Source of the DNA: Thermomicrobiales bacterium
GTDB lineage: Bacteria > Chloroflexota > Chloroflexia > Thermomicrobiales > JALYUS01
Assembly (NCBI GenBank): GCA_038231255.1
Contig: JBBRLR010000004.1
Span: forward strand, 17,489 to 81,488
DNA: 64,000 nucleotides
Direction: 5' to 3'
Positions 3,724-63,948 of the stretch are shown piece after piece. Each line of letters begins with the position of its first letter. Position 1 is the stretch's first letter. The translations under genes were made by a program, and so were the position numbers. Below the pieces are notes generated by a model. The model worked only from the letters and a program-made list of their open reading frames with translations, was not told the origin of the DNA and did no database searches.

Positions 3724-3828
3724 GGTGGAACAGGGTTTCAACCTGTGAGTTGACCAGTTGAAAAATCACCTTGGCGCGTCAGCACCCATCAATTTTTTAG
3801 GACGCACAGGTTGAAAACCTGTGCCACC
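3724..3828. repeat. Inverted pair of ggtggMacaggKttYcaacctgtg hairpin units between convergent otsA and otsB
   Basis: 3724-3749 is ggtggaacagggtttcaacctgtgag. 3803-3828 is the same unit in reverse orientation (rev-comp ggtggcacaggttttcaacctgtgc). The gap is 53 nt. Confidence 0.8.
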
Positions 3829-14574: not shown

Positions 14575-14589
14575 CACCGCAGCAATGGG

Positions 14590-14694
14590 GAAGTGAGCCG
14601 CCAAGACGCCACGAACGCCAAGAAGAGTGGGAAAAAGAAATACTGATGTTTCTTTCTCTCTTTCTCGGCATTCGTGGCGTCTTGGCGGCTTATT
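14590..14694. repeat. Long decamer-arm hairpin (copy F1)
   Basis: The left arm gccgccaagacgccacgaacgccaagaag pairs with the right arm cggcattcgtggcgtcttggcggc. The centre is purine-rich on the + strand (gggaaaaagaaa). It lies between convergent genes. Confidence 0.85.
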
Positions 14695-14701
14695 TAGATA
14701 G

Positions 14702-20970: not shown

Positions 20971-22815
20971 CTAACCTTCCTCGATCCAGTACTTGGCGAA
21001 GTTCTGGTAGAGCCAATAGGGGTTGGTTGCCTTGTCCGGCATGCCCTTGATGCGCTTGTTGAAGAAGAGCACGGTTTCCCAGTACATCACGTAGAGGAAG
21101 GGCACTTCTACCGAGATCAGTTTCTGCAGATCGCTGTAGATTTTCTTGCGCTTCTCCGCATCAACCTCTGCGGCGCCCGCGTCGAGCAATTTCTGCGCGT
21201 CCGGGTTGTCCCAGTGCGCCCAGTTGTTCGTGTTGCCCTTGTAGAGCGCCTGCCCGTCCGGGTCGCCGTTGTTGCCGCCGTAGGTCCAGTTGAACAGACC
21301 GATGTCATAATTCCCCTCGCGCTCCGCCGCGAGCGCGGCGGAGGTTTCCAGTTCCTTCAGTTGCATGTCAATGCCGACGTCTTTGAAGTTGCGCTGCGCG
21401 ATCTCTGCCTCGCTCTTGCGCAGCGCGTCCCCGCTAAAGACGGTGCAGACAACCGAGAGTTTCTGCCCCTGCGCGTTGGCGAGGATGCCGTCTGACCCCG
21501 GCGTCCAGCCTGCGTCCTTGAGCAGCGCCTTCGCCTTATCGAGATCGCGCGGGTAGGGTGTCGTGTTCGTCTCGTAATAAAACTCGAGCGCGGGTGAGAT
21601 GTTGCCCGTCGCCTTGACCGCAAGCCCCTTGAGGAGGTCCTTGACCATCGCGTCGCGGTCCATCGCGTACATCATCGCCTGACGGACGCGCTTGTCGCTG
21701 AGCAGCGGGCGCGTGACGTTAAGCGGGAAATGGTTGACGGCGGCGCCCGGCGCGCGAAAGGTCTGAAATTTCGGGTCCTTGATGAAATTGAGCGTATCCT
21801 CCGGCGCGAGCGGCCAGGTGGAGGAGTCTGCGTCGCCGGTGCGGAGGGCGATGGCGCGCACGGAGGTTTCCGGCACGATGTTCTCGCGCCAGGTGTCAAT
21901 ATAGGGGCGACCATCCCAGTAATCATCGAAGGCCGCGAGCGTGACGTGGTCGCCGAGCTTCTGCTCCATGAACTTGTACGGCCCGGTGCCGACGGGCGCT
22001 TTCTTGTATTCTTTCTCGCCGATCTTCTCATGGACGTGCTTCGGCACGATAGCGATCGTCGCGCTCAGCGCTCCAAAGGGGACGTAGACGCGCGACAGCG
22101 TGACGATGACGGTCGCGTCGTCCGGCGTCGCGACATCCGCGACATCCTTGAAGTTCGGCTGGTTGATTGCGGCATTCTTCGGGTCGCGGAGCCAGTCGTA
22201 GTAATACTTGACATCGGCGGATGTAAAGGGCTGTCCGTCGTGCCATTTGACGCCCTTGCGCAGTTTGAATGTCCACGTCTTGCCGTCCGGCGAAACCTGA
22301 TAGCTTTCGGCGAGGACGGGGGCGAGTTTGAAGTTCTCGTCCACCTTCAATAGCGCCTCGTGGATATTATAGATGAGGACGTACCAGACGGTCGGACCGG
22401 CATCGTCCGGGCTGAGGCTCGAAACATCCTGATGCCCCACCGTCACGAACGTGCCGCCCCGCTTCGGCTTCTTGCCGGACGCGGACGCGGCGGTCGTCGG
22501 GCCGCCGCCCGTGGCCGCGCTCGCCGCCGCCGGGGCGGTAGCGCCCGTGGATGCGGCGCTACTGGCGGCGGGCGCAGTTGACTGATTGACGGCGACCGTC
22601 GGGATCGTTCCTTTGGTGGGCGCTGCCTGCGTCCCACCAGCGGGAGTATTCGTCGGCGCGGAAGTGGAGCCGCCGCACGCAGCCAGGAGCGCGGCGACGA
22701 CCGGACTCGACATGCCGAGGAGCGCGGCACGGCGCGAGAATTCTCTGCGCTGTGCGGGGGTGGCGTCCCGCAATGCCTCGACCAGATCAAGCGGATGACT
22801 GGCGTCGTACGACAC
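20971..22815 (-). CDS. Peptide/nickel ABC substrate-binding lipoprotein (family 5), Tat-type signal
   Basis: RREFSRRAALLGMSSPVVAALLAACGG (twin-Arg plus lipobox), an Ala/Ser/Thr/Gly-rich linker, then an SBP_bac_5-like body. GTG 22815 preceded by gaaggagg. Confidence 0.9.
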   Translation of the reverse strand: MSYDASHPLDLVEALRDATPAQRREFSRRAALLGMSSPVVAALLAACGGSTSAPTNTPAGGTQAAPTKGTIPTVAVNQSTAPAASSAASTGATAPAAASAATGGGPTTAASASGKKPKRGGTFVTVGHQDVSSLSPDDAGPTVWYVLIYNIHEALLKVDENFKLAPVLAESYQVSPDGKTWTFKLRKGVKWHDGQPFTSADVKYYYDWLRDPKNAAINQPNFKDVADVATPDDATVIVTLSRVYVPFGALSATIAIVPKHVHEKIGEKEYKKAPVGTGPYKFMEQKLGDHVTLAAFDDYWDGRPYIDTWRENIVPETSVRAIALRTGDADSSTWPLAPEDTLNFIKDPKFQTFRAPGAAVNHFPLNVTRPLLSDKRVRQAMMYAMDRDAMVKDLLKGLAVKATGNISPALEFYYETNTTPYPRDLDKAKALLKDAGWTPGSDGILANAQGQKLSVVCTVFSGDALRKSEAEIAQRNFKDVGIDMQLKELETSAALAAEREGNYDIGLFNWTYGGNNGDPDGQALYKGNTNNWAHWDNPDAQKLLDAGAAEVDAEKRKKIYSDLQKLISVEVPFLYVMYWETVLFFNKRIKGMPDKATNPYWLYQNFAKYWIEEG

Positions 22816-24890: not shown

Positions 24891-25026
24891 CGTACAGACA
24901 CTAGCATTCCGTTGCCATCGTACCTGATTGTGGCAGGATAGCCTACGACGCTATCCCACCGAACCTCGTCATCAGTGTAGAATGCCCCCAGTGGATGAAC
25001 GTACAGAAAGGGGCAAGGCGCGCGTT

Positions 25027-27273
25027 ATGCAGCATCTCCGGGCGGTTTCACTGGCCGGGTCATGGCGCTTTCGGACCGATCCGGATCGTCTGGGCGACCT
25101 CACGTCCGCCGATCTCGTGCAGTCCGCCGACGACGAGTGCGCATTCCATCTGCCCACCTACGACGACAGCGACTGGCAGGCGATCCCTGTCCCCGGCAAC
25201 TGGCAGCAGTTCGGCCACGACTACAATGGCGTCGCCTGGTACCGGACGCGCTTCGTCCGGCCTGATTTTCCCGGCGATGGCGTCGCGCGGCTCCGCTTCG
25301 CGGGGGTGGATTACTACGCCGATGTTTGGCTCAACGGCTTCTACCTCGGTTCGCACGAAGGGTATTTCGCCCCCTTCACTTTCGATTGCACCCGCTGGCT
25401 CCGGGACGACAATGTGCTGGTCGTGCGCGTGGACAGCCCGAACGATGTGCGCGTCAAACACAAGCGCGAGCACGAACGCAAGACGCTCATCAAGGGCGCA
25501 TTGCAGGATTGGGATGTTAACAACCTCGATGTGAACCCCGGCGGTATCTGGAGCGACGTGACGCTGCTCCTGTCCGGGCCGCAGTACATCGCGGAGGTGC
25601 GCGCCGATGTGGATTTGGCCGCGCACGCTGCAACGGGCCGCGCCTCGCTCGCCTTGCGCGTCACGCTCGTCAACGCGCTCCCCGCCGCCGTGGATGCTCG
25701 CGTGCGGCTGACGCTCGCGCCCGCCACCTTCACTAGCGAGACGATCGAGGAGGAGGGGCGCATCCGCCTCCTGCCCGGCCCGAATGTCCATACCCTTTGG
25801 CTGCAAATCCCCGATGCCCGCCTTTGGTGGACGTGGGATCAGGGGCGGCCCGATTTGTACGCGCTCACCGTCACAGTCGGCACGGGCGAGACGCCGGGCG
25901 ACAGCGTCACGGAGCGGATCGGGCTGCGCACCGTCGAGCGGCGCGGCGCGGGCTGGGCGACGTACCTCAATGGCCGCCGCATCTTCTGGCGGGGCGCCAA
26001 TTACCTTTCCGATCAACTGCTCGGTTCAATGACGCCCGAACGGTACGCGCAGGATGTCCGCCTCCTCCACGAGGCGAACATGAACGTGGTGCGCCCCTTC
26101 TGCGTCGTCGAGCATGCCGCCTTCTACGCGGCGTGCGACGCGGCGGGGCTGCTCGTTTATCAGGACTTCCCAATGCAATGGCGGATGGCGAACGACTCCG
26201 ACCTTGTGCGGCGCGCGACGCGGCAGGCGGAGGAGATGATCGCGCTGCTGGCAAACCATCCGTCCGTTTTTCTGTATTGCTACGGCTCGGAGCCGGGCGA
26301 GGCGAACTTCAAGAAGCTGAGCATGGCGCTTGCCGCCACCTCCCGTGCGGCGGACTCGATGCGCATCACTCATCAGGCGAATGAGTACGCCGGCCACTGG
26401 GAGATCATGGCGGAGCGCGAGCGGTATGGCTGGCCGGTGGACATGCACCTCTACAGTGGCTGGTACACCGACGCCTTCGGCGAACTCTACGATCTCGCGC
26501 GCTACACGCCGGAGCATTTCGAACTGGTCACCGAGTATGGCGCGCAGGCGCTCCCCGCGCAGGAACTCCTGCACGCCATCCTGCCGCCCGAGCAGCGCGC
26601 CTGGCCACCGACGCCGCGCGCCCTCCGCACCCTGAAACGCCGCTGTATGCAGCCCGAGCCGCTCTTTCGCGCCGTGCCGGACGCGACGAGTTGGCAGGAT
26701 TTGATCGCCAAAAGCCAGGCGTATCAGGCGCTCGTCCTCAAGTTCCACACCGAGCACTACCGGCGGCTGAAGTACGCGCCGTGCAACGGCGCCGTAATGT
26801 TCACCTTCAACGATTGCTGGCCCGCCGTGACGTGGTCGGTCGTGGACTACGCGCGCCGTCCCAAGCAGGGCTATTACGCCTTGCAGCAAGCCTTCGCGCC
26901 GCTCCATGTCATGCTGAACTGGGTCGCGCCGCTCGCCGCGACGCTCGGCACGCCGTGGCAGGCGGAGATCATCGTCGTCAACGATCTGCCGGAGTCGTTC
27001 GCGGGCCTGATCGCCGGCTGGCTCGTCCGGCACGATGCGACGGGCGCGATCCTCGCCGAAGGCTCGATCCCGTGCGACGTGGCGGCGGACTGCCCGGCGA
27101 CGCCAATCGGCGTCCTGCCACTGCGCCCCCCGCCGGACGCGCCCGTCGGCCCCTGCACCATCGCCCTCCGCCTCACCGACCGAAACGGCGACATCCGCGC
27201 CACGAACGCCTACACCCTCATCCTCCGCGCCCCCTGGCAGACCACGACCTCATCCCTGCGGACGGAAACCTGA
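25027..27273 (+). CDS. Glycoside hydrolase family 2 (beta-mannosidase/exo-glucosaminidase-like)
   Basis: GH2 sugar-binding N-terminus (WQAIPVPGNWQ, GVAWYRTRF, VDYYADVWLNGFYLGSHEGYFAPF), then a TIM-barrel segment. Start MQHLRAV at 25027. Confidence 0.8.
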   Translation: MQHLRAVSLAGSWRFRTDPDRLGDLTSADLVQSADDECAFHLPTYDDSDWQAIPVPGNWQQFGHDYNGVAWYRTRFVRPDFPGDGVARLRFAGVDYYADVWLNGFYLGSHEGYFAPFTFDCTRWLRDDNVLVVRVDSPNDVRVKHKREHERKTLIKGALQDWDVNNLDVNPGGIWSDVTLLLSGPQYIAEVRADVDLAAHAATGRASLALRVTLVNALPAAVDARVRLTLAPATFTSETIEEEGRIRLLPGPNVHTLWLQIPDARLWWTWDQGRPDLYALTVTVGTGETPGDSVTERIGLRTVERRGAGWATYLNGRRIFWRGANYLSDQLLGSMTPERYAQDVRLLHEANMNVVRPFCVVEHAAFYAACDAAGLLVYQDFPMQWRMANDSDLVRRATRQAEEMIALLANHPSVFLYCYGSEPGEANFKKLSMALAATSRAADSMRITHQANEYAGHWEIMAERERYGWPVDMHLYSGWYTDAFGELYDLARYTPEHFELVTEYGAQALPAQELLHAILPPEQRAWPPTPRALRTLKRRCMQPEPLFRAVPDATSWQDLIAKSQAYQALVLKFHTEHYRRLKYAPCNGAVMFTFNDCWPAVTWSVVDYARRPKQGYYALQQAFAPLHVMLNWVAPLAATLGTPWQAEIIVVNDLPESFAGLIAGWLVRHDATGAILAEGSIPCDVAADCPATPIGVLPLRPPPDAPVGPCTIALRLTDRNGDIRATNAYTLILRAPWQTTTSSLRTET

Positions 27274-27387
27274 ACGCAGAGCGCGCAGACATCGCAGAGG
27301 GGAGAAGAGAACGAACGAAGTGTCTTGAACCGAGAGTTCCTACTTGTTCTCTCTGCGTTCTCTGCGTCCTCTGTGCTCTCTGCGTTA
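27273..27387. repeat. Long decamer-arm hairpin (copy F2)
   Basis: gaacgcagagcgcgcagacatcgcagagg ... ctctctgcgttctctgcgtcctctgtgctctctgcgtt. The GH2 stop TGA (27271-27273) abuts the arm. Confidence 0.85.
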
Positions 27388-27418
27388 CCGTTCCCTTTTC
27401 GCCGAGTGGAGGTAGTAC

Positions 27419-28456
27419 ATGCGGACGGTGCGGGTGGCGCTGGTGGGGTTCGGGAATGTTGGGCAGGCGCTGGCGGACCTGCTCGAACAGCGGGCGGACG
27501 TGCTCTACCGCCGGTACCACCTTGACATCAGCATGACGGGGATCGCTACCGCGCGGCACGGCACGATCATCGCGCCGGAAGGGGTGGACCTCGCGCGGAC
27601 GGTCGCGGCAATCGAGGATGATCCGGCGGCGCGGTTGCCGGGCGCGCTGGCGGGCGACATCGCCATGCCCGCCTTTATCGCCACCGTGCCCGCCGACATC
27701 ATCGTCGAACTCAGCCCGCTCGCGCCGGAAAGCGGCCAGCCCGCCATCCGCCACTGCGAGACGGCCCTGCGCAACGGCAAGCACGTCGTGACCGCCAATA
27801 AAGGCCCCGTCGCCTATGCCTATCGCCGCCTGCGCGATCTCGCCGTCAGCCAGCATCGCCAATTTCGCTTCGAGTCCGCCGTGATGGATGGCGCGCCGAT
27901 CTTCGCGCTCGTCGAAAAGGCGCTGCCCGCGACCGAGGTGCGCGGCTTCCGGGGCGTCATCAACAGCACCTCGAACCTTGTCCTGACGATGATGGCGGCG
28001 GGGCAAACGCTGGCGGAAGCCGTCGCGGAGGCGCAACGGCTCGGCGTCACCGAGGCCGACCCCGCCTACGACCTCGACGGCTGGGACGCGGCGGTCAAGG
28101 TCTGCGCGCTGATGAACGCGCTGATGGACGCCGATGTGCGCCCCGCCGACATCGAGCGCACCGGCATCGGCGGCATCACCGTGGACGATCTCGCCGCAGC
28201 GGCTCAGGCGGGCAACGCGATCAAACTGGTTGCGGAAGCGTGGCAAGCGCGGGACGGCACGCCGCATGGCCGCGTCGCGCCGCAAACCCTGCCGCTCGCC
28301 GACCCGCTCGCCACGCTGGCGGGCACGTCCAATATGCTCATCCTCCGCACCGACACGATGGGCGACCTCGCCATCGGCGAGTACGATGGCGGCACTCCGC
28401 AGACCGCCTACGGCGTCCTCGCCGACATCCTCCACATCACGATGAGCGAAGCGTGA
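27419..28456 (+). CDS. hom: Homoserine dehydrogenase (no ACT domain)
   Basis: VRVALVGFGNVGQAL (NAD site) and GVINSTSNLVLTMMAAGQTLAEAVAEAQRLGVTEADPAYDLDGWDAAVK (catalytic domain signature). Confidence 0.85.
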   Translation: MRTVRVALVGFGNVGQALADLLEQRADVLYRRYHLDISMTGIATARHGTIIAPEGVDLARTVAAIEDDPAARLPGALAGDIAMPAFIATVPADIIVELSPLAPESGQPAIRHCETALRNGKHVVTANKGPVAYAYRRLRDLAVSQHRQFRFESAVMDGAPIFALVEKALPATEVRGFRGVINSTSNLVLTMMAAGQTLAEAVAEAQRLGVTEADPAYDLDGWDAAVKVCALMNALMDADVRPADIERTGIGGITVDDLAAAAQAGNAIKLVAEAWQARDGTPHGRVAPQTLPLADPLATLAGTSNMLILRTDTMGDLAIGEYDGGTPQTAYGVLADILHITMSEA

Positions 28457-28457
28457 C

Positions 28458-28588
28458 GAAACCGCAGAGCCGCAGAGGACGCAGAACGGAATCCGGTGGT
28501 GGCGGGCTCCGGGTACCCTCTGGGTGGCATGCCGCTCTGGTGCAGGCTAAAGCCCGCCACCACCAGGAAAATCGCCCCAACTGCGTAA
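28458..28588. repeat. Half decamer-arm (F3) followed by a ggtggtggcgggct...agcccgccaccacc hairpin carrying the MITE core in reverse
   Basis: 28458-28489 is accgcagagccgcagaggacgcagaacgg with no partner arm. The stem spans 28495-28564. The interior rev-comp ggcatgccacccagagggtacccgga matches the MITE core. The tail caactgcgtaa is shared with 41292-41354. Confidence 0.75.
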
Positions 28589-30234: not shown

Positions 30235-30445
30235 ATCGAGAAAGAACGACTCCGCTATTCGCGGCGCAATTCCCTCTAAACAAGACAGTACCATGCAGGG
30301 ATGGATTGTGCAACTGTTCACAATGTTAGGAAAATGTGAGCCGGTTTGTGCGTACGTTCGCGGTGCGTCGTGCGATTTGGCTCTGTGAACAAAGCGACAA
30401 TCGGCGAGTTGTGCGATTGACAAACCGGGGAGAACGGCAAAGAAA

Positions 30446-30543
30446 GGGGGAGTTGAACCACGAAGGCGCGAAGAGCACAAAGGGAGAGGAGAGAGGGAGT
30501 TGATTTTTTCGTTCCATCTTCGCGCCTTCGTGGTTCAACTCCC
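30446..30543. repeat. Long decamer-arm hairpin (copy F4)
   Basis: gggggagttgaaccacgaaggcgcgaagagcacaaaggg ... ccatcttcgcgccttcgtggttcaactccc. The right arm encodes the last codons and TGA of the epimerase gene. Confidence 0.8.
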
Positions 30544-31266
30544 TTTTTCAATCTGGGCGGCGTACCGCTCGGCGTCGTCCTCGGGTTGGTAGCCGAGTTG
30601 CTCCTGGGTCGGGCCGATGTCCCAGTAGCGCCGGGTGTTGCCGGAGATCGCGTAGAAGATGCCCCAGGTGAGCGGCGTCTCGATGGCGCGCCACGCCAGT
30701 TGCGCCATGTCGCGCGGGGAGAGCCAGGTGCTGAGGTTGCGGACATTCGTCGGCTCCGGCAGCCACGAGCCGATGCGCAGGCAGATCACTTCCAGGCCGT
30801 GCTCGTCCACATAAAGGCGGGCGATCGCCTCGCCGAACGCCTTGGACGCGCCGTAGTAGCCGTCCGGGCGTACCGGCATGTCCGGGTAGCAGGGGCGACC
30901 CTTTAGTTCGTAGTAGCCCGTGACGTGGTTGGTCGTCGCGAAGACCATCCGATGTACGCCCTCATGCCGCATCGCCTCCAGCACCGTGTACTGGCCGACG
31001 ATGTTGTTGTTGAGGGCATCTTCCCACGGCGTTTGCACGGCGGAGGATGCCGCAAGATGGATCACGGCGTCGCAGCCGCGCATCGCGGCGCGCATTCCGT
31101 CCATGTCGGTGAGATCGGTCTGGACGATCTCTTCGCCCTCCCGCGCGGGGCCGACGGGTGTCCCGCCCGGCCGCTCCTGCAGACGCAGCGCGTACCGCCC
31201 TTTCAGCAGTTCCCGGAGCGACTCCCCGATCTTCCCACTTGCGCCGGTCATCAAAACCTTTTTCAT
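30535..31266 (-). CDS. NAD-dependent epimerase/dehydratase (SDR family)
   Basis: MKKVLMTGASGKIGESL (Rossmann GxxGxxG) and a YGASK catalytic motif. Confidence 0.85.
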   Translation of the reverse strand: MKKVLMTGASGKIGESLRELLKGRYALRLQERPGGTPVGPAREGEEIVQTDLTDMDGMRAAMRGCDAVIHLAASSAVQTPWEDALNNNIVGQYTVLEAMRHEGVHRMVFATTNHVTGYYELKGRPCYPDMPVRPDGYYGASKAFGEAIARLYVDEHGLEVICLRIGSWLPEPTNVRNLSTWLSPRDMAQLAWRAIETPLTWGIFYAISGNTRRYWDIGPTQEQLGYQPEDDAERYAAQIEKGS

Positions 31267-37107: not shown

Positions 37108-37245
37108 GAAACCGGGGATGAACGGCAAAGACGCAAAGAGCGCAGAGACGCAAAGAAGAAAGAGAAAAAGGACGGGATCCATCTTTCTTTCTTCCCCTTT
37201 GCGTCCTTCGCGTCCTTTGCGTCTTTGCGGTTCATCCCCGGTTTC
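37108..37245. repeat. Long decamer-arm hairpin (copy F5), inside the operon
   Basis: gaaaccggggatgaacggcaaagacgcaaagagcgcagagacgcaaagaag ... cctttgcgtccttcgcgtcctttgcgtctttgcggttcatccccggtttc. Confidence 0.9.
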
Positions 37246-37710: not shown

Positions 37711-37815
37711 GCACGGAGGACACGGAGGCCACAAAGAGCACAGAGAATGAATACGATCGAGAGTCTTCTCATTTGTCTTTCTCTGTGTCCTCTGTGTCCT
37801 CTGCGATCTCTGTGT
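37711..37815. repeat. Long decamer-arm hairpin (copy F6), inside the operon
   Basis: gcacggaggacacggaggccacaaagagcacagagaatga ... tttctctgtgtcctctgtgtcctctgcgatctctgtg. Confidence 0.85.
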
Positions 37816-38753
37816 TATCCCCTTCCCGCATCTTCGCCCCAGAAGGGGAGCGAGAGGTACTTGGCCGCGCCATCGCAGAAGATCGTGACGACCGTGCCCG
37901 TGTCAAGGGTCGCGGCGACGCGCAGGGCGGCAACGGTGTTCGCGGCGGCGGAAACGCCGACCAGCACGCCTTCCTCGCGCGCCAGCCGTTTGACCATCGC
38001 GTGCGCGTCGTCTGTGCTCACTTCCTCGATCATATCCGCCAGCGAAGGATCGTAGATGCCGGGGACGATGGCGGAGACGTAGTGCTTGATCCCCTCGATG
38101 CCGTGGAGCGGGCTGTCCGGCTGGACGGCGACGAGGCGCACGGCGGGGTTGTAGTCGCGCAGACGGCGACCCGCGCCCATCAAGGTGCCGCTCGTGCCTG
38201 TCGCGGCGACGAAATGCGTCACCGCACCGTCCGTCTGCTCCCAGATTTCCGGCCCGGTCGTTTCGTAGTGGGCGCGCCAGTTGGCTGCGTTGTTGAACTG
38301 GTCAGGGTAGAAATACCGCTCCGGGTCGGCGGTGTGGCGGCGTTGCACCTCGTGGATTGCGCCATCGAACCCCTCCGCCGGATCGGTCTCGACGAGCGTT
38401 GCGCCGTACGCCGCCAGCATACGCTTACGTTCCTCGCTCGCGTTCGCCGGCATGCAGAGTTCGACCCGATAGCCGAGTGTCGCGGCGATCATCGCGTAGG
38501 CGATGCCGGTATTGCCGCTCGTCGCGTCCAAAATCGTCTTGTCCGCCGTCAGGAGGCCGCGCGCGATGCCGTCCCGGATCATCGCGAGGGCGGGGCGATC
38601 CTTGACACTGCCGCCGGGGTTGTTCATCTCCGCCTTCGCCGCGACGGTGACGCCCGCCGGCAGGTGCGCCGTGATCTGTGTCAGCCGGATCAACGGCGTG
38701 TTGCCGATCATATCGAGCACGGTCGTCGTGCCTTGTGCCGTTATCTGCGCCAT
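37815..38753 (-). CDS. cysM: Cysteine synthase B-type PLP enzyme (CysM)
   Basis: IGNTPLIRL, NPGGSVKDRPA (PLP lysine), SGNTGIA, TGTSGT. Start MAQITAQG at 38753. Confidence 0.9.
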   Translation of the reverse strand: MAQITAQGTTTVLDMIGNTPLIRLTQITAHLPAGVTVAAKAEMNNPGGSVKDRPALAMIRDGIARGLLTADKTILDATSGNTGIAYAMIAATLGYRVELCMPANASEERKRMLAAYGATLVETDPAEGFDGAIHEVQRRHTADPERYFYPDQFNNAANWRAHYETTGPEIWEQTDGAVTHFVAATGTSGTLMGAGRRLRDYNPAVRLVAVQPDSPLHGIEGIKHYVSAIVPGIYDPSLADMIEEVSTDDAHAMVKRLAREEGVLVGVSAAANTVAALRVAATLDTGTVVTIFCDGAAKYLSLPFWGEDAGRG

Positions 38754-38858
38754 CGGTGCTCGTCCCTCCACGCGTTCGCGGCGCGCATTGTCGCAGAAGT
38801 TGCGTAACAAACGCAACAACGCGTCGCACCTGCGTAGTGGTCACAACGGTAGGAAAGG

Positions 38859-55304: not shown

Positions 55305-56558
55305 CTACCCCCGCCCATGCGCGATCAGTTTCGCCTCGGGCAGGCGGCGGAGATGGAGCATGACGAGCAGGCCGACAAACGGGCCGGGGGCGAGGAAGGC
55401 GAACGTCCAGCGCCAGCCGAGATGGTCGCGCAGGATCGGCACGAGCCAGATCGTCACGACCGTCAGGGTGAAGCCGACCGCCAGTTGCAGCGTTAATGCC
55501 GTGCCGACGTACGACTGGTCCGCCAGTTCGGTGACGACCGTCGAGAATTGCGCCGAATCCGCGACGACGGTCACGCCCCAGACGAGGCCGACCGCGACGA
55601 CGACGGGAAAGGGCGCGCCGAACGCGAAGCCGATGCCGAGGGCGCACGCGCCGGAGATCGCCATCGCGGCGGCGGTCGTGCGCGTGCGGCCCCAGCGGTC
55701 GCCGAGGACGCCGCCGAGCCAGCAGCCGACCGCGCCGATGCCGATCACGGCGAAGGTGGCGAGCGCGGCGCTCCGGCGGGCGTTCGTCGTGCCGCGCGCC
55801 GTCAGGCTGTCCGTCGCGAAGGCGAGGAACCACGCCCACATCGCGTAGAGTTCCCACATGTGCCCGAAGTAGCCGAGCGAGGCGAGGCGGACGCCCCGGT
55901 TCGCGAAGACTTGACGGATTTGCTTCGGGTCGAACGGCGCGCGGGAAAAGGGGAACGGGCCGTCGTGGATCGTCAGGGCGGCGAGCAGCGCGCCCGCGAC
56001 GGTGAGGAGTGAGGTCGCGAGGATCACCGCGCGCCAGTGCAGGCCGCCGATACCGTTGACGAAGTGGGGCAGCGCAGAGCCGAGTGTCAGCGCGCCGACC
56101 ATCACGCCGAGCGCCATGCCTCGCCCGCGCCGGAACCACGTCGAGAGCAGTTTCAGTCCGACCGGATAGACCCCCGCGAGGAAAAATCCCGTCGCGAACC
56201 GTAGCGGGATGGCGAGGCCTGGCCCGTGCGCCAATACGATCCCTGCGTTGGCCGTCGCGGCGCCGAGCGCGGCGACGCAGAAAACCCACTTGGGCGGGAA
56301 AACATCGGCGAGTGTCAGCACGGCGGAAAGCACGGCCCCGGTGACAAAGCCGAGTTGCACGGCAATTGTCAGCAGCGACGCCTGATTGGTCGTCAGCCCC
56401 CACGCGGCGCGCACCTGCGGCACGACAGCGGAGGCCGAAAACCACGTCGTCATACTGAGCAGCACCGCCCCCGCCATCACCGCCAGCGCCCGCCACCGCC
56501 TAACCGGAAGGGCGTCGGCTTCAGCCTGAACCACCGCAACCACCGCTTTCCCTGCCAT
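55305..56558 (-). CDS. MFS transporter
   Basis: 417 aa with about 12 TM segments. Confidence 0.85.
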   Translation of the reverse strand: MAGKAVVAVVQAEADALPVRRWRALAVMAGAVLLSMTTWFSASAVVPQVRAAWGLTTNQASLLTIAVQLGFVTGAVLSAVLTLADVFPPKWVFCVAALGAATANAGIVLAHGPGLAIPLRFATGFFLAGVYPVGLKLLSTWFRRGRGMALGVMVGALTLGSALPHFVNGIGGLHWRAVILATSLLTVAGALLAALTIHDGPFPFSRAPFDPKQIRQVFANRGVRLASLGYFGHMWELYAMWAWFLAFATDSLTARGTTNARRSAALATFAVIGIGAVGCWLGGVLGDRWGRTRTTAAAMAISGACALGIGFAFGAPFPVVVAVGLVWGVTVVADSAQFSTVVTELADQSYVGTALTLQLAVGFTLTVVTIWLVPILRDHLGWRWTFAFLAPGPFVGLLVMLHLRRLPEAKLIAHGRG

Positions 56559-56589
56559 TGCTGCATCTCCAGATCACCTAGCCGGGGAG

Positions 56590-56713
56590 GACCGCAACGG
56601 CGCAAAGGACACAAAGAGCGCAAAGAAAGTTATGAGAGGGAAACCCTTGCAATCCCTCCCCTTGCTTCCTTCCCTCGTTGCGTCCTTTGCGCTCTTTGCG
56701 CCTTTGCGGTTCA
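56590..56713. repeat. Long decamer-arm hairpin (copy F7)
   Basis: gaccgcaacggcgcaaaggacacaaagagcgcaaagaaag ... cgttgcgtcctttgcgctctttgcgcctttgcggttc. The minus-strand tip tgaaccgcaaagg supplies the TGA of the S9 peptidase gene. Confidence 0.85.
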
Positions 56714-58648
56714 TTCAGTTTCATCTCCCGGTTTCAACCATTGATCGTACCAGGCGCGGACGCGGCGGAGGATGTCGCGCTGGTGGGCGCGCTCGCGGAC
56801 GCCGTGCGGCTCACGTGGGTAGATAACGAGTTGAACGGGCACGTTCTGTTCCCGCAAGGCGCGCGAGAAGCCGATGGCCTGTGAAACGGGCACACGGGCG
56901 TCTTCTTTGCCGTGGAGGATAAGGAGCGGGGTCGTGGCGTCTTTCGCGTAGGAGATTGGAGACAGACGGGCGGCATTGTGCGGGCCGGGGCCGTCCCACG
57001 GGCGGTCGCCGCCGAGCGCGGCCTCGAAGGTCGGCAGGTCGCTCGTCATCGTCATCATGTTCCAGTCGGAAACGCCCGCGCCCATCACGCCCGCCTTGAA
57101 GCGATGCGTCTGCGTGATCGTCCACGCGGTCATAAAGCCGCCCTGGCTCCAGCCGCCGATGCCGAGCCGGTCGGGGTCAGCAATGCCGCGCGCAACCGCC
57201 GCGTCCACCGCCGCTATGATGTCGCGGTAGTCCGCGCCGCCGACATCGCCGCGCGCCGCCGTCGCGAAGGCGTTGCCGTGCCCCATCCCGCCCCGGCAGT
57301 TCGGCATCAGCACCGCGTAGCCGTGCATCGCCAGCCACTGTCCCCAGTTCAATGGGCGGAGGTTCCAGCCATTCGTCCAGCGTGAATACGGCCCGCCGTG
57401 GACATAGACAACTGTCGGCAGCGGTCCTTCCGGCGCGTCCGGCGGCCGGATCAGGATGCCGTCGAGCGCGAGCCCGTCCGGCGCATCCCAATAAAACGGC
57501 TCCTGTTTGCCGAAGCGGACATCCCGCAACACTGCGTGGTGGTCGCTGACGCGGTGAAGTTTACCCGGTTGTCCCGTCCACAATTCGGGCGGTTCACTCC
57601 CCGCGCTCCGCACGGCCGCGATGACCGGTGCGGCAGTATGGGGCGGCATCGCCAGCGAGAACGCGCCGAGGTCGCCCGTCGGGTGCGCACAGAACAGGGC
57701 GGGCAGTCCGGTCGGCGTATTGATGTTGACAAGCTCCGTCGTTAGCCCCCGTGCGACGGCGATGGTGATACGGGGCTGGCCCGGCGCGGCGCGGAGATTT
57801 ATGGCGCACGCCATCTCATTGACACTGGGGCCGATCACGGTTGGCTCGCCGCCATCGGCGGATACAGCCCAGACGGTGTGGGAACACTGCGGCATCAGCT
57901 CGTGCGGCGCGACGAAGACGAGCATGTCGCCGATTGCCTCTGACTCGCTCCATGCGAGGTTGTTTCCACCCGTCGTCTGGCAGAGATGCCGCGCTTCACC
58001 GCCCGCTGCCAGGATCGTGAGGATCGCCGTTTTGTGCCGGTCATCCAGTTCCGGCGTCGGCTGGGCGAAGTAGGCAATTGTCGCGCTGTCCGGCGACCAG
58101 ACGCACTCGGTGATGTGCATATCGCCGGTCGGTAGCGTCGTCACCGCGCCACTGGCGAGATCGAGGAGATGGAGGCGGTCGTAGGACCATCGCTCGCCGT
58201 AGACATCGGCGTCGTCGCGCTCTTTTTCGCGCCGTTCGTCCGCGTCGGTCGGGTCGTCGGGCGCGAGAAAGGCGATGCGTGCGCCATCCGGCGACCACGC
58301 GAATGACGCGATGCTCTTCTTTCGCTCAACGAGTTTTTCGGCCTCGCCGCCGCTGGCGGGCATCCGGTAGAGCACCTTCGTGCCCCGGTTCGCACGGTCG
58401 GAAAGGAAGGCGAGCGTTCCGCCGCTCGGCGACCAGCGGGGCGTATCGTCGCGCCCACCGCCGAAGGTCCATTGCCGCGCCATCGCGGACCCGTCCGTCG
58501 GCGCGACCCAGATCGCCCCTTCCGGGTGGTCGCCCTCCTGCCCATAGCAGGCAGCGACATACGCGACGCGGCTCCCATCCGGCGACACATGCGGGTCGTC
58601 CGGGTAGGCGAGCGAAACGACTATCTCTTCCGTCAATGGCATCGGCAT
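56711..58648 (-). CDS. S9 family serine peptidase (acylaminoacyl/prolyl oligopeptidase type) with beta-propeller
   Basis: Propeller repeats (SPDGSRVAYV, WSPSGGTLAF, WSPDGARIAF). The catalytic domain has GGWSQGGFMT and HGKEDARVP. ATG 58648 (MPMPLTEE) follows ggaagga. The longer track ORF overlaps the next gene. Confidence 0.9.
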   Translation of the reverse strand: MPMPLTEEIVVSLAYPDDPHVSPDGSRVAYVAACYGQEGDHPEGAIWVAPTDGSAMARQWTFGGGRDDTPRWSPSGGTLAFLSDRANRGTKVLYRMPASGGEAEKLVERKKSIASFAWSPDGARIAFLAPDDPTDADERREKERDDADVYGERWSYDRLHLLDLASGAVTTLPTGDMHITECVWSPDSATIAYFAQPTPELDDRHKTAILTILAAGGEARHLCQTTGGNNLAWSESEAIGDMLVFVAPHELMPQCSHTVWAVSADGGEPTVIGPSVNEMACAINLRAAPGQPRITIAVARGLTTELVNINTPTGLPALFCAHPTGDLGAFSLAMPPHTAAPVIAAVRSAGSEPPELWTGQPGKLHRVSDHHAVLRDVRFGKQEPFYWDAPDGLALDGILIRPPDAPEGPLPTVVYVHGGPYSRWTNGWNLRPLNWGQWLAMHGYAVLMPNCRGGMGHGNAFATAARGDVGGADYRDIIAAVDAAVARGIADPDRLGIGGWSQGGFMTAWTITQTHRFKAGVMGAGVSDWNMMTMTSDLPTFEAALGGDRPWDGPGPHNAARLSPISYAKDATTPLLILHGKEDARVPVSQAIGFSRALREQNVPVQLVIYPREPHGVRERAHQRDILRRVRAWYDQWLKPGDETE

Positions 58649-58668
58649 GGCGGCGCTCCTTCCAGCCA

Positions 58669-59469
58669 CTATTCCCCCGCCCGTACCGCGACAATTTGCA
58701 GCCGCGCGCCATGTGCCGCCGAGAGGTCGAGCCAGCGGGCTTCCGCCGGGCCGGGGTCGGCGGTCAGGCAGGCGCTGTAGGGGCCGTCGCCGCGCGCGGC
58801 GAGCGAGGCAGTGAGCGGGCTTTGCGCGTCCGCCGGCTGCGCGAGTTCGATGCTGTACTGGCCGACAACATACGTCGCGGTATGAGCGCGCAGGTCCGGG
58901 TTGTCGCGCTCGACGAGCGGGAGGGCGTCGAGGAGTGCGGTGAACCGCTCCTTCGCGGCGGCGAGGTCGCCGACGGCAATCGTGAGGCTGAGGATGCCCG
59001 TCACGTTGTTCGCGTGCTGCGTCGCCTCGCCGTTCGGCACGCGCAGGCCGCGCGGCGTCACATCCTCGATGACGAAGGGGAGTTGGCCGGCGGGCGACAC
59101 GCTCGCGCTGCGCCATTGGAGTTGCACGCCGTCCAGCCGCGCACGCGCGCCGTCCATCGGCGCGTAGGGGAGGCCCGCCCCGGTGAGGCGCGCAACATCC
59201 GCCGCGAGATCGGTGCTGCCGAGGGCGAAGTCAATCAACCCGCCGCCGGCATCGAGGAAGCGGCGCCAGCGATGCTCGGAGGGTGTTGATGGGTTTTGGA
59301 AGGCGATCAGTTCGATGTACGCGCCATCCACGAAGGCGATCAGGGCGTTGTGCGTGCCGCCGGGGTGCGCGCCGCCGGGTATGACGGTGAAGCCAAGTCC
59401 CTCGTAGTCGCGGATGCCGGTCGCCAGGTCGGGGACGAGAATAACGCAATGGTCAATGCCGGTGAGCAT
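58669..59469 (-). CDS. VOC/glyoxalase-like two-domain protein
   Basis: MLTGIDHCVILVPDLATGIRDYEGLGFTVIPGGAHPGGTHNALIAFVDGAYIELI. Confidence 0.7.
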   Translation of the reverse strand: MLTGIDHCVILVPDLATGIRDYEGLGFTVIPGGAHPGGTHNALIAFVDGAYIELIAFQNPSTPSEHRWRRFLDAGGGLIDFALGSTDLAADVARLTGAGLPYAPMDGARARLDGVQLQWRSASVSPAGQLPFVIEDVTPRGLRVPNGEATQHANNVTGILSLTIAVGDLAAAKERFTALLDALPLVERDNPDLRAHTATYVVGQYSIELAQPADAQSPLTASLAARGDGPYSACLTADPGPAEARWLDLSAAHGARLQIVAVRAGE

Positions 59470-60678: not shown

Positions 60679-62592
60679 ATGAACGACACGGCGAAACGGA
60701 CGGTGCATCCCTTCCTCGCGCGGGTGCAGGACACGGCGCGCGGGCCGCTCCTCTTCGATGGCGCGATGGGCACCCTGCTCCACATGCGCGGGGACGAGCC
60801 GATGGATACCTGCTTCGTCGCGCTCAATAAATCCCGGCCCGACCTCGTCTCGTCGCTCCACCGCGACTACATCGCGGCGGGCGCGGAAGCGATCAAGACG
60901 AACACCTTCGCGGGCAACCGCTTCCAGTTGGAACTCCATGGCTGGGGCGACGAGGTGCGCGATCTGAACAAGCGCGCCGCGAAACTCGCCCGCGACGCCC
61001 GCGAGATCAGCGGACAGGCGGTCTGGATCGCCGGCAGTGTCGGCCCGACCGGGCGGCTGCTCGCGCCCATCGGTATGAGTGCCATCAAGGAGATCCACGC
61101 CGCCTTCCGCGAGCAGATCGAGGTGCTCGTCGAGGGCGGCGTGGATCTGCTGCTCCTCGAAACCTTCTCATCGCTCGCCGAGATTCGTGAGGCGATCGCG
61201 GCGGCGCGCGCCGTCTCCGACTTGCCGATTATCGCCTCGATGACCTACGCGGACGACGACCGCACGCCCGTCGGCCACGCCCCGCCCGATGTGGCGCGCG
61301 AGTTGACGCGCCTCGGCGTGGACTGCATCGGCGCGAACTGCTCGGTTGGGCCGCAGAATGTTACGCGCGTCGCTCTCACCCTCCGGCAGGCGACGCACCT
61401 GCCGATCAGTGCGATGCCGAACGCCGGCTGGCCCGCCAACCTCAACGGGCGGATCGTCTACGCCTCCTCGCCCTCGTATCTCGCGGCGCACGCGCGGCAG
61501 GCTGCGGAGGCGGGCGTCCGCATCCTCGGCGGTTGCTGCGGCACCGAACCGGCGCACATCGCCGCGATGCGGCAAGCGCTCGATGCCCTATTCGCCCTCG
61601 ATTCGCAGGTCGCGAAGCACCCGAATGGCGCCGCCGTGGCGATCACGATGCTCCCGGCGGAGGCAACGGACGCCGGGCTTGATGAGCCGGAGTACGGTAG
61701 CGAGTTCGGGCGCAAACTGGCGCGCGGTGCGTTCGTCACGACGGTCGAGGTCGCCCCGCCGCGCGGCCTCAACCCGGCAAAGGTGCTCGCCGGGGCGCGG
61801 CTGCTCATGGAGGCCGGGGTGGACGCCGTGGATGTCACGGACAGCGCCCGCGCCCGCCTTTCGATGAGCCCAATCGCGACCTGCGCGCTGATCCAGCAGA
61901 AGGTCGGCATCGAGACGATCATTCATCTGACCACGCGCGACCGCTCCCTAATGGGCTTGCAGGCGGACTTGCTCGGCGCGCATGCGCTCGGCCTGCGCAA
62001 CGTCCTCGCCCTCACCGGCGACCCTCCCTCACTGGGGAATTACCCGAACTCCACGGCGGTCTACGATGTGGACTCCGTCGGACTGATCGGTATTCTCAAG
62101 CAGATGAACGAGGGTGTGGATATCGGCGGCAACCCAATCGGCGCGGCCGCCGGCTTCACCATCGCCTGTGCCGTTGACCCGACGCGCGACGATTTGCACG
62201 AGGAAGCGCGGCGCTTGAAACGGAAGATCGCGGCGGGCGCGCACTTCGTGATGGCGCAGCCGATCTTCGATCTCGACCGCTGGCGGCGCTTCCTCGATAT
62301 TTACGGCGCCGTCGAGATTCCCGTCCTGCTCGGTATTCTGCCCTTGCAGAACACGCGGCACGCGGAGTTCCTGCACAACGAGGTGCCCGGCATCGTCTTG
62401 ACCGACCGCGTCCGCCAACGCATGGCGGACGCCGGGAACGACGGTCGTCACGTCGGCATCGCCCTCGCGCAGGAACTGATTGTGGAGGCGAAAGACCTCG
62501 TGCAGGGCATCTACATGATGCCCTCCTTCGGTCGCTACGAACAAGCCGCCGCTGTCCTGTCCGCCATCCGCGAACCGGCAACCGGGGATTGA
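60679..62592 (+). CDS. yitJ: Bifunctional homocysteine S-methyltransferase / 5,10-methylenetetrahydrofolate reductase (YitJ-like)
   Basis: The N-terminal domain has LLFDGAMGT, GANCSVGP and GGCCGTEPAHI (zinc Cys ligands). The C-terminal MTHFR domain has VTTVEVAPPRG, HLTTRD, LALTGDPP and QPIFD. Confidence 0.9.
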   Translation: MNDTAKRTVHPFLARVQDTARGPLLFDGAMGTLLHMRGDEPMDTCFVALNKSRPDLVSSLHRDYIAAGAEAIKTNTFAGNRFQLELHGWGDEVRDLNKRAAKLARDAREISGQAVWIAGSVGPTGRLLAPIGMSAIKEIHAAFREQIEVLVEGGVDLLLLETFSSLAEIREAIAAARAVSDLPIIASMTYADDDRTPVGHAPPDVARELTRLGVDCIGANCSVGPQNVTRVALTLRQATHLPISAMPNAGWPANLNGRIVYASSPSYLAAHARQAAEAGVRILGGCCGTEPAHIAAMRQALDALFALDSQVAKHPNGAAVAITMLPAEATDAGLDEPEYGSEFGRKLARGAFVTTVEVAPPRGLNPAKVLAGARLLMEAGVDAVDVTDSARARLSMSPIATCALIQQKVGIETIIHLTTRDRSLMGLQADLLGAHALGLRNVLALTGDPPSLGNYPNSTAVYDVDSVGLIGILKQMNEGVDIGGNPIGAAAGFTIACAVDPTRDDLHEEARRLKRKIAAGAHFVMAQPIFDLDRWRRFLDIYGAVEIPVLLGILPLQNTRHAEFLHNEVPGIVLTDRVRQRMADAGNDGRHVGIALAQELIVEAKDLVQGIYMMPSFGRYEQAAAVLSAIREPATGD

Positions 62593-62735
62593 GCGCAGAG
62601 AACGCAGAGGACGCAGAGGGCGCGGAGACTACAGAGAAGAGATTTGGAAATATATGAATTGGTAGGAAATTCTTCCACTCCCTCTTTCAACTCCCTTTCT
62701 CTGGGTTCTCTATGCTCTCTGCGTCCTCTGCGCTC
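62591..62735. repeat. Long decamer-arm hairpin (copy F8) whose two tips carry the stop codons of both convergent genes
   Basis: The left tip is tgagcgcagagaacgcagaggacgcagagg. The reverse complement of the right tip is tgagcgcagaggacgcagagagc. The yitJ-like TGA (62590-62592) and the MFS TGA (62734-62736) are the terminal TGAs. Confidence 0.85.
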
Positions 62736-63948
62736 AACCCCCTCGTCCGTACCGGAACCAGGATGCGGCGGCGGTGAGGAAGAAGAGGGCGGCGGCGAGG
62801 GCGAAGATGAATGAGAGCGAGAGCCAGTCCGCCACCCAGCCGAGGGCGAGGCCGGAGACGAGGAAACCCATCTCGAAGACGCCCGTTTGCGTCGCCAGTG
62901 CCGCCCCGCGCCGTTCGGGGGGCACGAGGTCCACCGCGAGGGCGTTCAGTTCGGGGAGGACGAGGCTGATCGCCCCGCCCCAGATCAGCGCGGCGACGAC
63001 AAAGGCAGGGAAGACGGGGAAGGCGGTCAGGATTGTCAGGCCGACGCCGAGTGCGATCAGGCCGGGGATCAGCACGCGCCACCGCCCATAGCGGTCCGAC
63101 CACCGGCCGCCGACCGCCCGCACGACGAAGAACATCAGCGCGTCGAAGGTGAAGAAAAACCCCGCGCCCGACAAATGTCGCTCGTCCATCAGCGGCACGA
63201 GAAAAGCGAACACTACCCCGTTCCCCAATGCCGTCACGAAACTCGGAATCGCCGCTGGCAGCACCCGCCATTCGAGTAGCGATCCCCGCATTTGCTCCCC
63301 CTTCCCCCGTGGGGGAGAAGGAAGGGGGGGTAGGGCTGCTCCCGCCCGCAGCGGCAGCAGCAACAGCGCGCAAAGCAGCCCCGCGCCCGCCGAGAGTGCG
63401 AAGGTCAGGTGATACGACACATGCGTCGCGACGAGCAGGCCGACCGGTGGCCCGATGGCGATGGCGACCGTTGAGGCAACCGACGATAGCCCGATTGCCT
63501 CGCCCCGCCGCGTTTCGGGCGCGAGTTCCGCCGCCATCACGACGCTGCCGGTGAGGAAGATCGCCGACGCGACGCCCTGGAACAGTCGGACGGCGATCAG
63601 CACCCAGAGCAGCGTGCCGATCCCGTAGAGCGGTGATGAAAGCATCATCACCGCGCCGACGATCAGGAGCGGAAGGAGCGCGCCCCGATCCATTGCGCGG
63701 CCAAGAAAGGGCCGGGACAGGATCGCGCTGATCGAGAGCGCCCCGATGACGAGGCCGATCCGCCCATTCGAGAAGCCGTGCGCTTGCATATACTGTGGCA
63801 GCGCCGCTTGCAGCACGAAGATCGTGAAGAACCACATGCCCGTTGCCGCGAGAAAAAGTACGAAGCGCGGTGACGCCAGCGGCGACCGATCCGTCTGATG
63901 AGAGGATATTGGGGAAATCGCTGCGGTGATAGTCGGTTCGTTCCCCAT
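62734..63948 (-). CDS. MFS transporter
   Basis: 404 aa with about 12 TM segments and MFS loop LGRAMDRG. Confidence 0.85.
   Translation of the reverse strand: MGNEPTITAAISPISSHQTDRSPLASPRFVLFLAATGMWFFTIFVLQAALPQYMQAHGFSNGRIGLVIGALSISAILSRPFLGRAMDRGALLPLLIVGAVMMLSSPLYGIGTLLWVLIAVRLFQGVASAIFLTGSVVMAAELAPETRRGEAIGLSSVASTVAIAIGPPVGLLVATHVSYHLTFALSAGAGLLCALLLLPLRAGAALPPLPSPPRGKGEQMRGSLLEWRVLPAAIPSFVTALGNGVVFAFLVPLMDERHLSGAGFFFTFDALMFFVVRAVGGRWSDRYGRWRVLIPGLIALGVGLTILTAFPVFPAFVVAALIWGGAISLVLPELNALAVDLVPPERRGAALATQTGVFEMGFLVSGLALGWVADWLSLSFIFALAAALFFLTAAASWFRYGRGG

Follow-up and report, generated by a model that had tools for sequence, protein, structure and literature searches.

Tandem-unit hairpins at gene ends of a Thermomicrobiales bacterium and their association with a GxxExxY nuclease cassette

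Introduction

REPIN-RAYT systems consist of hundreds of short extragenic palindromes per genome, REP doublets that form hairpins and lie behind genes, together with one or a few vertically inherited genes for a REP-associated tyrosine transposase (RAYT) that are flanked by the same repeats (Bertels & Rainey 2011, PMC3116915; bioRxiv 10.1101/2021.07.10.451892), and REPIN populations are reduced in genomes that lack a RAYT (bioRxiv 10.1101/2021.07.10.451892). Here we describe a family of long hairpins that resembles them in each of these respects, including the shrinkage of the repeat population on gene loss, which we saw in one lineage. We started from a 64,000-nt stretch of a Thermomicrobiales bacterium (assembly GCA_038231255.1, contig JBBRLR010000004.1, positions 17,489 to 81,488; hereafter the window), in which an earlier note, made from the sequence alone, had listed eight hairpins built from tandem degenerate units, often with the stop codon of a flanking gene at their tips. 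Probably the hairpins belong to a palindromic repeat family that works in the manner of REPIN/RAYT but with another enzyme; they would be its numerous members without a gene, and a cassette encoding a GxxExxY protein its gene-bearing form. In what follows G000 is the window's own genome, other G numbers are related assemblies, and C plus a number is a contig.

The family also differs from REPIN-RAYT. The associated gene encodes a GxxExxY protein of PD-(D/E)XK fold and not the HUH/Y1 transposase that defines a RAYT; each arm is a tandem array of 8–9-nt units, where a REPIN has a single REP with its GTAG-type head; and copies are alike in their arms only, not in their centres, with the same unit core found across many phyla. 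G000 does have a RAYT-like gene (C28:42941-43447), which is flanked by a different repeat, GGGCTTTAGCCTGCC. This Y1/HUH transposase-like gene, with a HAHIL motif, carries inverted GTGGTGGCGGGCTT(C/T)AGCCTGCC repeats on its flanks (C28:42928-43516); gene and repeats make up a REP/RAYT pair of the classical kind, distinct from the hairpins with heptad arms.

Miniature inverted-repeat transposable elements (MITEs) such as Correia/NEMIS and Nezha are also small, non-coding, high-copy elements with terminal inverted repeats, which can fold as hairpins and can alter the ends of neighbouring genes. However, no parent insertion sequence with a DDE transposase carries the ends described here, and the copies are not alike over their whole length, so we do not class them as MITEs. 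Target-site duplications showed no consistent pattern, with one candidate given below. Intrinsic terminators share with them a stable stem-loop just after a stop codon, but the stems here are 3–5 times longer, a U-tract almost never follows, and copies lie within operons. Nor do they fit integron attC sites: their ends, GGAGAAC/GTTCTCC or TTGAAC/GTTCAA, do not match RYYYAAC/GTTRRRY, and copies stand singly among housekeeping genes (an integrase was not searched for).

Two further descriptions concern tandem heptamers or octamers. In Geobacter metallireducens, paired 'global regulator binding sites' of classes 1–3 have been reported (Aklujkar et al. 2009, PMC2700814), class 2 consisting of three tandem TCTCCGTS(Y) units, with the two arrays of a pair on opposite strands and a varying distance apart. 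Compared by that paper's description, not in the genome itself, they are likewise paired tandem arrays of 7–8 nt, and the reverse complement of the class 2 unit, SACGGAGA, equals the CACGGAGA/CACGGAGGA units of our family; they were read as regulator sites and were connected neither with a gene nor with mobility (PMC2700814). STRR of heterocystous cyanobacteria (Nostoc) and GGGAATC of Xanthomonas (Rehm et al. 2015, PMC4692102) are tandem 7-nt units in non-coding DNA, as here; they are enriched in the 50 bp or so around stop codons and scarce between divergent genes. They are described there as G-quadruplex-forming direct arrays, not as inverted pairs with clamps, and no associated gene is reported.

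GxxExxY is a widespread protein family whose function is entered as "Unknown" in a census of PD-(D/E)XK proteins (PMC3424549), and the searchable literature mentions it in passing only. We found no published link between such repeats and GxxExxY in the literature; unit strings gave no match there, and a search for STRR with hairpins gave nothing relevant. Here we test the GxxExxY-repeat link and contribute co-occurrence statistics, the fixed site of the cassette, a natural knockout in one congener (G007) and an analysis of stop codons.

Results

A genome-wide family with common arms and unrelated centres

G000 comprises 5.1 Mb in 254 contigs with 64% G+C. Because the copies have no positional homology (unit number varies and loops are unrelated), we counted them by pattern and by alignment. 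A regular expression for arms of three units found 383 in G000 against 22 in a reversed-sequence control. For full hairpins, two-unit seeds were extended by local alignment of the arm with the reverse complement of downstream DNA, which gave 170 hairpins at a score of at least 36 and 196 at a score of at least 30, with 0 in a complement-only control; this census misses three of the eight window copies, so the counts are lower bounds and the true number is nearer 250. The genome thus has at least 170 inverted extragenic palindromes, a copy number of the REPIN kind, and the census that the earlier note had proposed turned up further copies both genome-wide and in relatives.

Each arm consists of a short clamp followed by 3–5 tandem 8–9-nt units with the core CRCNRAG. 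The clamp outside the units is conserved as (GGGGA)TGAAC ... GTTCA(TCCCC) or as GAAACCGGGGAGAAC ... GTTCTCCCCGGTTTC. Several unit subfamilies stand side by side in G000: CGCAAAG, CGCAGAG, CACGAAG, CGCCAAG, CACAGAG and CACCAAG. The centres have a median length of 44 nt and 44% G+C, the left half being 76% purine and the right half 76% pyrimidine. They are otherwise unrelated among copies, with a BLAST match in 24 of 14,365 loop pairs and one identical pair. We also considered unique palindromic centres, a signature of fold-back synthesis, and rejected them: loop halves are no more self-complementary than halves taken from different elements, since every loop is rich in GA in its left half and in CT in its right half.

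A GxxExxY gene bracketed by the same arms

G000 has one PF13366/TIGR04256 gene (C14:52823-53170), which scores 138.8 bits where the cut-off is 35. The gene is placed between nuoF and nuoG and points the same way as the operon, with the arm CACAGAGGACGCAGAGAA 8 nt before its ATG and the arm CTCTGTGTCCTCTGTGCTCTCTGTG 14 nt after its stop codon, and the TTCAG clamp of these arms is also that of the window copy at 37712. The gene-bearing form is a cassette of about 0.5 kb, in which a GxxExxY protein of 125–135 residues is bracketed by the same inverted arms. Score and motifs both place the protein in the GxxExxY family (TIGR04256; Pfam PDDEXK_3), residues G32, E35, Y38, D74, E84 and K86 of the G-x-x-E-x-x-Y and D...E-x-K motifs, the last three of them catalytic, being invariant in 44 homologues. 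Its structure is predicted with confidence (predicted local distance difference test score 91.6) and has a generic PD-(D/E)XK fold, nearest to restriction-endonuclease-like proteins, Cas4 and lambda-exonuclease; Foldseek matches to the model were weak, with E-values no better than 1e-3, and reflect the generic nuclease fold. A sequence search of the protein against PDB chains gave no match.

The cassette site is syntenic in three related metagenome-assembled genomes (MAGs; 87–89% identity over 2.4 kb), in G001 and in G010, while G011, of another genus and without arms, has an empty nuoF-nuoG spacer of 12 nt. The nearest named relatives of the gene and its flanks are Thermomicrobiales/Chloroflexota MAGs. 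G000 thus has one intact cassette, which is passed on vertically and whose place between nuoF and nuoG is fixed. By tblastn the nuclease had 0 matches in a phage collection and matched 7 plasmid or chromid records; nothing in the collections searched pointed to a phage or a plasmid as vector. A possible second cargo, the four-helix-bundle protein of 23S rRNA intervening sequences (PF05635), is absent from G000. Among the small genes scanned, none between such arms encodes a transposase; the sole gene found there is the GxxExxY nuclease.

Arms follow the gene across genomes and phyla

Inverted tandem-unit flanks were present at 22 of 33 Chloroflexota GxxExxY loci and at 6 of 499 small genes of the repeat-rich G000 (p = 1e-25). 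Outside the phylum they flank four of five hand-picked loci. In a set of 77 loci drawn from about 25 phyla and classes, 48 have them, and the TGAAC clamp is often there too; the periodicity score used for the 77-locus set undercounts arrays, since their spacing varies between 8 and 9 nt. Unit variants follow the lineage of the gene (CACAGAG, CGCCAAG, CACGAAT, CACAGATTA and others), and a Geobacteraceae GxxExxY gene has CACAGAG arms (our locus L245). Culturable carriers of the gene include Crinalium epipsammum PCC 9333 and Gloeocapsa PCC 7428. The presence of the gene and the number of three-unit arms go together in two sets of genomes:

31 relatives: with the gene, 13 of 13 have at least 90 three-unit arms; without it, 16 of 18 have at most 2 (p = 5e-7), the two exceptions being G028 and G007
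151 Chloroflexota: with the gene, 27 of 34 have at least 10 arms; without it, 4 of 117 have at least 10 (p = 2.6e-19)

The family in a congener with a broken gene

G007 is a congener with 86–87% DNA identity to G000, as close to it as others and closer than G008 and G009. It keeps the nuoF-nuoG cassette with both arms, but an internal deletion has removed about 225 nt of the gene. The genome has 45 arms, against 183–792 in its ten congeners. At 11 sites orthologous to G000 elements, G007 has a full element at one or two and other hairpin types at two; about five are cut down to one-unit mini hairpins, half elements or bare clamps, and about three are empty. G001, where the gene is intact, has elements at four of five window sites, and all five of its elements that could be mapped are matched by one in G000.

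One of the other hairpin types of G007 (L211 region; C15:72110-72196 and 21457-21698) has CGAGTAA/CGAGTAG heptamer arms and stands at a site orthologous to a CACGAAG element of G000; a second element there has an extra array of three CATGCTGCC. The foreign unit types at these sites indicate that unit families replace one another in the same spacer.

The copies of the window

All eight loci of the earlier note proved to be as it had placed them, seven full hairpins and one half copy. The inverted-repeat scan of the window found arms of 33–63 nt with 74–94% complementarity at seven of them. Each copy was folded as RNA and compared with 200 dinucleotide shuffles, the control that the note had suggested: z scores of the seven full hairpins ran from -5.54 to -12.14, and 0 of 200 shuffles was as good for any of them, whereas the half copy at 28458-28489, a left arm without an inverted partner, scored +0.65. 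The units are tandem as described, with a period of 8–9 nt rather than 9–10, made up of the 7-nt core CRCNRAG and a spacer of 1–3 nt. Two-unit patterns gave 26 matches in the window against about 0.5 expected, and no match lay outside the eight loci, so the list of window copies is complete. The copies are as follows; open reading frames (ORFs) termed GH2-like, hom and S9 peptidase-like were so named in the earlier note, and MFE is minimum free energy.

14591..14695: full hairpin, CGCCAAG-type units, between ORFs 14080-14574 (+) and 14702-16084 (-); arms 34 nt, 88% complementary; MFE -66.5 kcal/mol, z -11.45
27264..27395: full hairpin, CGCAGAG-type units; left terminus CTGAAC gives the TGA stop 27271-27273 of ORF 24928-27273 (GH2-like); z -5.54
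28454..28489 (+): solo left arm (half element) TGACGAAACCGCAGAGCCGCAGAGGACGCAGAACGG, starting with the TGA stop of ORF 27419-28456 (hom); z +0.65
about 30423-30441: remnant of a GAAACCGGGGAGAAC-type outer clamp and one decayed unit, ACCGGGGAGAACGGCAAAG, directly outside the next hairpin
30442-30549 (compound site 30423..30549): full hairpin, CACGAAG/CGCGAAG-type units; right terminus GTTCAA gives the TGA stop 30535-30537 (-) of ORF 30535-31266 (epimerase-like); arms 33 nt, 94% complementary; z -10.71
37108..37245: full hairpin, mixed CGCAAAG/CGCAGAG units, clamp GAAACCGGGGATGAAC ... GTTCATCCCCGGTTTC, between two co-oriented minus-strand genes; arms 63 nt; z -12.14
37712..37817: full hairpin, CACGGAG/CACAGAG-type units, ATTCAG clamp as in the GxxExxY cassette; inverted repeat 37712-37814; TAA stop 37815-37817 (-) of ORF 37815-38819 abuts the last unit; z -6.13
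56591..56713: full hairpin, CGCAAAG-type units; inverted repeat 56591-56710; right terminus GGTTCA gives the TGA stop 56711-56713 (-) of ORF 56711-58669 (S9 peptidase-like); z -7.14
62584..62742: full hairpin (the copy flagged in the note), CGCAGAG-type units, clamp GGGGATTGAGC ... GCTCAACCCCC, filling the whole spacer of two convergent genes and including both TGA stops, 62590-62592 (+) and 62734-62736 (-); z -6.68

Units turn over together at orthologous sites

Orthologous sites in related genomes show how these elements change. At the 27264 site G007 has the clamp scar alone and G001 a CACAGAG-type element; at 30442 there is no element in G001, where the gene has another C-terminus, a one-unit mini hairpin in G010 and a half element in G007; at 56591 the element is of CGCAAAG type in G001a and of CACAGAG type in G001b and G007. 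The 62591 site carries an element in six congeners (with CGCAGAG, CACAGAG or CGCGAAG units) and a one-unit mini hairpin, TGAACCACAGAGGTCTCTGTGGTTCA, in G007. At 37108, G007 is without an element (a stop codon, 8 nt and the next ribosome-binding site), and G001 has flank and clamp in common with G000 while the units differ, which shows units turning over inside an inherited element. Comparison of this copy with the empty G007 site gives one candidate target duplication of 7–8 bp, CCTCCTCA / CTTCCTCA, which is anecdotal; other sites are nested, scarred or ambiguous. Nesting is seen in the G002 copy at 62591 and in the remnant clamp at 30423; the remnant suggests that a younger element was put into, or in place of, an older one.

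The first unit at the 62591 site reads GCGCAGAG/CTCTGCGC in G000, CCACAGAG/CTCTGTGG in G008 and CCGCGAAG/CTTCGCGG in G009; the remaining units of the two arms all show the same change. Complementarity between arms is 92–100% within a species, against an identity of 70–90% between orthologous arms of different species. The covariation that the earlier note had noticed is therefore real at orthologous sites but concerted: since all units of both arms alter alike, it speaks for a process acting on the DNA, either concerted evolution or replacement, and not for pair-by-pair compensation.

In G001, two syntenic copies of the window's 52–64 kb region (G001:C3:286812-288216 and G001:C18:70101-71475) have 82–86% identity to G000 and differ in element type at equal sites. 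The G001 bin is probably a mixture of two related species.

Placement behind genes and the supply of stop codons

With our own simple codon-usage caller (4,184 genes), all G000 elements are intergenic, at a median of 9 nt from the facing stop codon. Spacers of convergent genes hold 40 copies against 27 expected and those of divergent genes 10 against 25 (p = 6e-4). Copies also occur inside operons, at nuoF-nuoG and at 37108, where the element lies between a stop codon and the ribosome-binding site of the next gene. In-frame insertion of the kind known from Rickettsia palindromic elements was considered and rejected, since the seven copies seemingly within genes reflect over-extended ORF starts.

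Of 329 element ends, 118 have a TGA in the clamp, at positions -5 to -3 relative to the first unit (as TGAAC in 107), and the palindrome presents it on both strands. Among 173 facing genes, 24 (about 14%) stop exactly 5 nt before the first unit, all 24 on TGA. Stops within an element are TGA in 34 of 46 cases, against 57 of 134 for stops outside (p = 3e-4). The six stops named in the earlier note (27271, 28454, 30535, 56711, 62590 and 62734) are correct, and a seventh contact that it had overlooked is the TAA at 37815-37817 (-), abutting the last unit of the 37712 copy. Stops supplied by a tip are rarer in the genome as a whole than in the window. The note's reading of a structured, insertion-prone repeat family fits the data, the TGA at the tip being part of the conserved terminal inverted repeat TGAAC/GTTCA. 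The clamp is also found in Cyanobacteria, Myxococcota and Planctomycetota; its occurrence in such distant phyla marks it as an old feature of the element and not an adaptation to the host.

The earlier note had also proposed comparing the C-termini of orthologous genes, and these do change with the element:

S9 peptidase-like gene, G000, element present: WLKPGDETE*
S9 peptidase-like gene, G001b, element present: WLKGD*
S9 peptidase-like gene, G007, element present: WLKTED*
epimerase-like gene, G000, element present: AQIEKGS*
epimerase-like gene, G001, no element: AQITTP*
epimerase-like gene, G007, half element: AQVEGVGFHRAGT*

In the peptidase-like orthologues every stop lies within the terminus of an element of a differing type. 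Since C-termini at orthologous gene ends differ by element, the element does in some cases make the stop codon and the last residues of the flanking gene. We read this as a by-product, or survivorship: insertions that clip a 3' end would be tolerated if the terminal TGA is in frame.

As the earlier note had warned, translation of the elements yields spurious low-complexity ORFs (TQRTQRTQR, LCVLCVLCA). For annotation, the elements create such ORFs, lengthen ORF starts, and rewrite the last codons and stop of real genes; MAG assemblies are probably broken at these repeats.

Discussion

The data shown above comprise the common anatomy of hairpin and cassette, the association of gene and arms across phyla, their co-occurrence, the collapse of the family where the gene is broken, and turnover, nesting and shrinkage at orthologous sites. 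How the family spreads we can only infer. The nuclease would act on the arms and cut near the clamp. Its substrate would be the symmetric duplex, or else a hairpin or cruciform extruded from it, and it would probably work as a dimer. Host repair or replication would then copy the arm set from another copy into the break. New spacers would be seeded at a low rate, and more often both arms of existing elements would be re-homogenised. Once the enzyme is gone, long palindromes would be deleted down to their clamps. Such re-copying of arms would explain why conserved arms surround unrelated centres, why arm complementarity exceeds orthologous conservation, why unit types switch between species, and the collapse in G007.

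The earlier note had offered a different explanation, that the hairpins are lineage-specific terminators or stabilisers of mRNA 3' ends, with selection maintaining the RNA structure and the arms covarying to compensate. Their strong folds, the median distance of 9 nt from stop codons and the enrichment between convergent genes are what one would expect. REP elements of Proteobacteria stabilise upstream mRNA, and a secondary effect of this kind is plausible here. As an account of the family, however, we regard it as very unlikely. In 105 elements with a known transcribed strand, mismatches compatible with G·U wobble pairs number 124 on the sense and 117 on the antisense strand (p = 0.70), so the sense-strand excess that RNA selection should leave is missing. 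A T-run of at least 4 follows 16 of 339 element ends (5%); the stem-loop followed by a U-tract that makes an intrinsic terminator is therefore not the rule, and copies sit within operons. A scan of the window against Rfam gave no match at gathering thresholds, and pairing is not conserved in a strand-specific manner. Moreover, a fold needs no likeness among the tandem units of one arm, and the family follows a nuclease gene across phyla. That a global regulator or a nucleoid protein binds the arrays as its target sites strikes us as more improbable still, to the point where we give it hardly any weight. The paired TCTCCGTS(Y) sites of Geobacter metallireducens, whose reverse complement is the CACGGAGA unit, were so interpreted (Aklujkar et al. 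2009, PMC2700814), but the elements of G000 are depleted between divergent genes, where promoters lie, and are found at 3' ends; from one congener to the next they turn over, nest and shrink, and the gene associated with them encodes a nuclease and no regulator.

The most serious alternative makes the gene a passenger: hairpins would arise and persist by host processes (slippage of short repeats, and template switching that perfects quasi-palindromes), and GxxExxY would be a homing-type selfish gene lodged in their loops, dependent on the hairpins as a habitat but neither spreading nor maintaining them. It accommodates the fact that only the arms are common to copies while the loops are unrelated, the presence in these genomes of other hairpins with heptamer arms for which no gene is known (AGCAATG in G000, CGAGTAA in G007), and the few genomes that have arms without the gene. 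Yet it predicts many hairpin-rich genomes lacking the gene, and in the phylum sample these are the 4 of 117 noted above; it does not lead one to expect that a congener with a dead gene has ten-fold fewer arms and shrunken elements; and slippage alone does not explain why organisms as far apart as Cyanobacteria and Myxococcota have the same unit core and the same TGAAC clamp. We think it unlikely.

Several points nevertheless weigh against a REPIN/RAYT-like system run by the GxxExxY nuclease. The correlations between gene and arms would also arise if the gene only lives in, or homes into, existing hairpins, and the genomes compared are not phylogenetically independent and all of MAG grade. Arms occur without a detected gene in G028 (148 arms; 86% complete), G102, G067 and G079, and 7 of the 34 gene-bearing genomes have few arms. 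Collapse following loss of the gene was seen in a single lineage of this genus. One gene with CACAGAG/CGCAGAG arms stands beside five unit subfamilies, which the model does not explain. Among the sites compared there was no fresh insertion with clean boundaries, and because copies are alike in their arms only, unlike ordinary MITEs or REPINs, simple transposition of whole elements cannot be the main process.

It is possible, if on balance doubtful, that the nuclease-based system reaches much further: GxxExxY would be the partner of a second, independently evolved REPIN-like replicator in more than 20 phyla, its nuclease not transposing whole elements but cutting palindromic heptad arrays whose two arms are then re-copied from other copies (break-induced arm conversion), continuously regenerating long perfect palindromes at gene ends, which would collapse once the enzyme is lost. 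If true, this would assign a role to a large family of orphan proteins and account for the hairpins of heptamers and octamers in Geobacter, cyanobacteria and others, among them repeat hairpins annotated as regulator sites in earlier genome papers. It would also add a second enzyme class to the long-lived, vertically inherited repeat systems of REPIN/RAYT type. A defined DNA partner, inverted CRCNRAG arrays with a TGAAC clamp, makes GxxExxY function directly testable with oligonucleotides.

Other repeats and reading frames

Four long ORFs of the window run through hairpins: 14131-14727(-), 26691-27536(+), 30318-30746(-) and 56226-56744(+). They would be false gene calls, with a length that comes partly from stop-free GA-rich or CT-rich arms. 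Between convergent genes at 3724-3828 the window has a palindrome of another family, GGTTTCAACCTGTG ... CACAGGTTGAAAACC, which lies outside the CRCNRAG family; at its site G001 has an unrelated small hairpin and G007 about 480 nt with an extra minus-strand ORF. Elsewhere in G000 a second type of heptamer hairpin, with AGCAATG units (GCAATGAGCAATGAG ... CTCATTGCTCATTGC), flanks small ORFs at C52:3387-3982 and C126:3467-3977. Finally, in G138, of the same class (genus g15), the reversed control pattern gave 87+68 matches against 15+25 for the real pattern; this genome therefore has an abundant array of a mirror-image motif (GARVCRC-like units), perhaps another repeat family.

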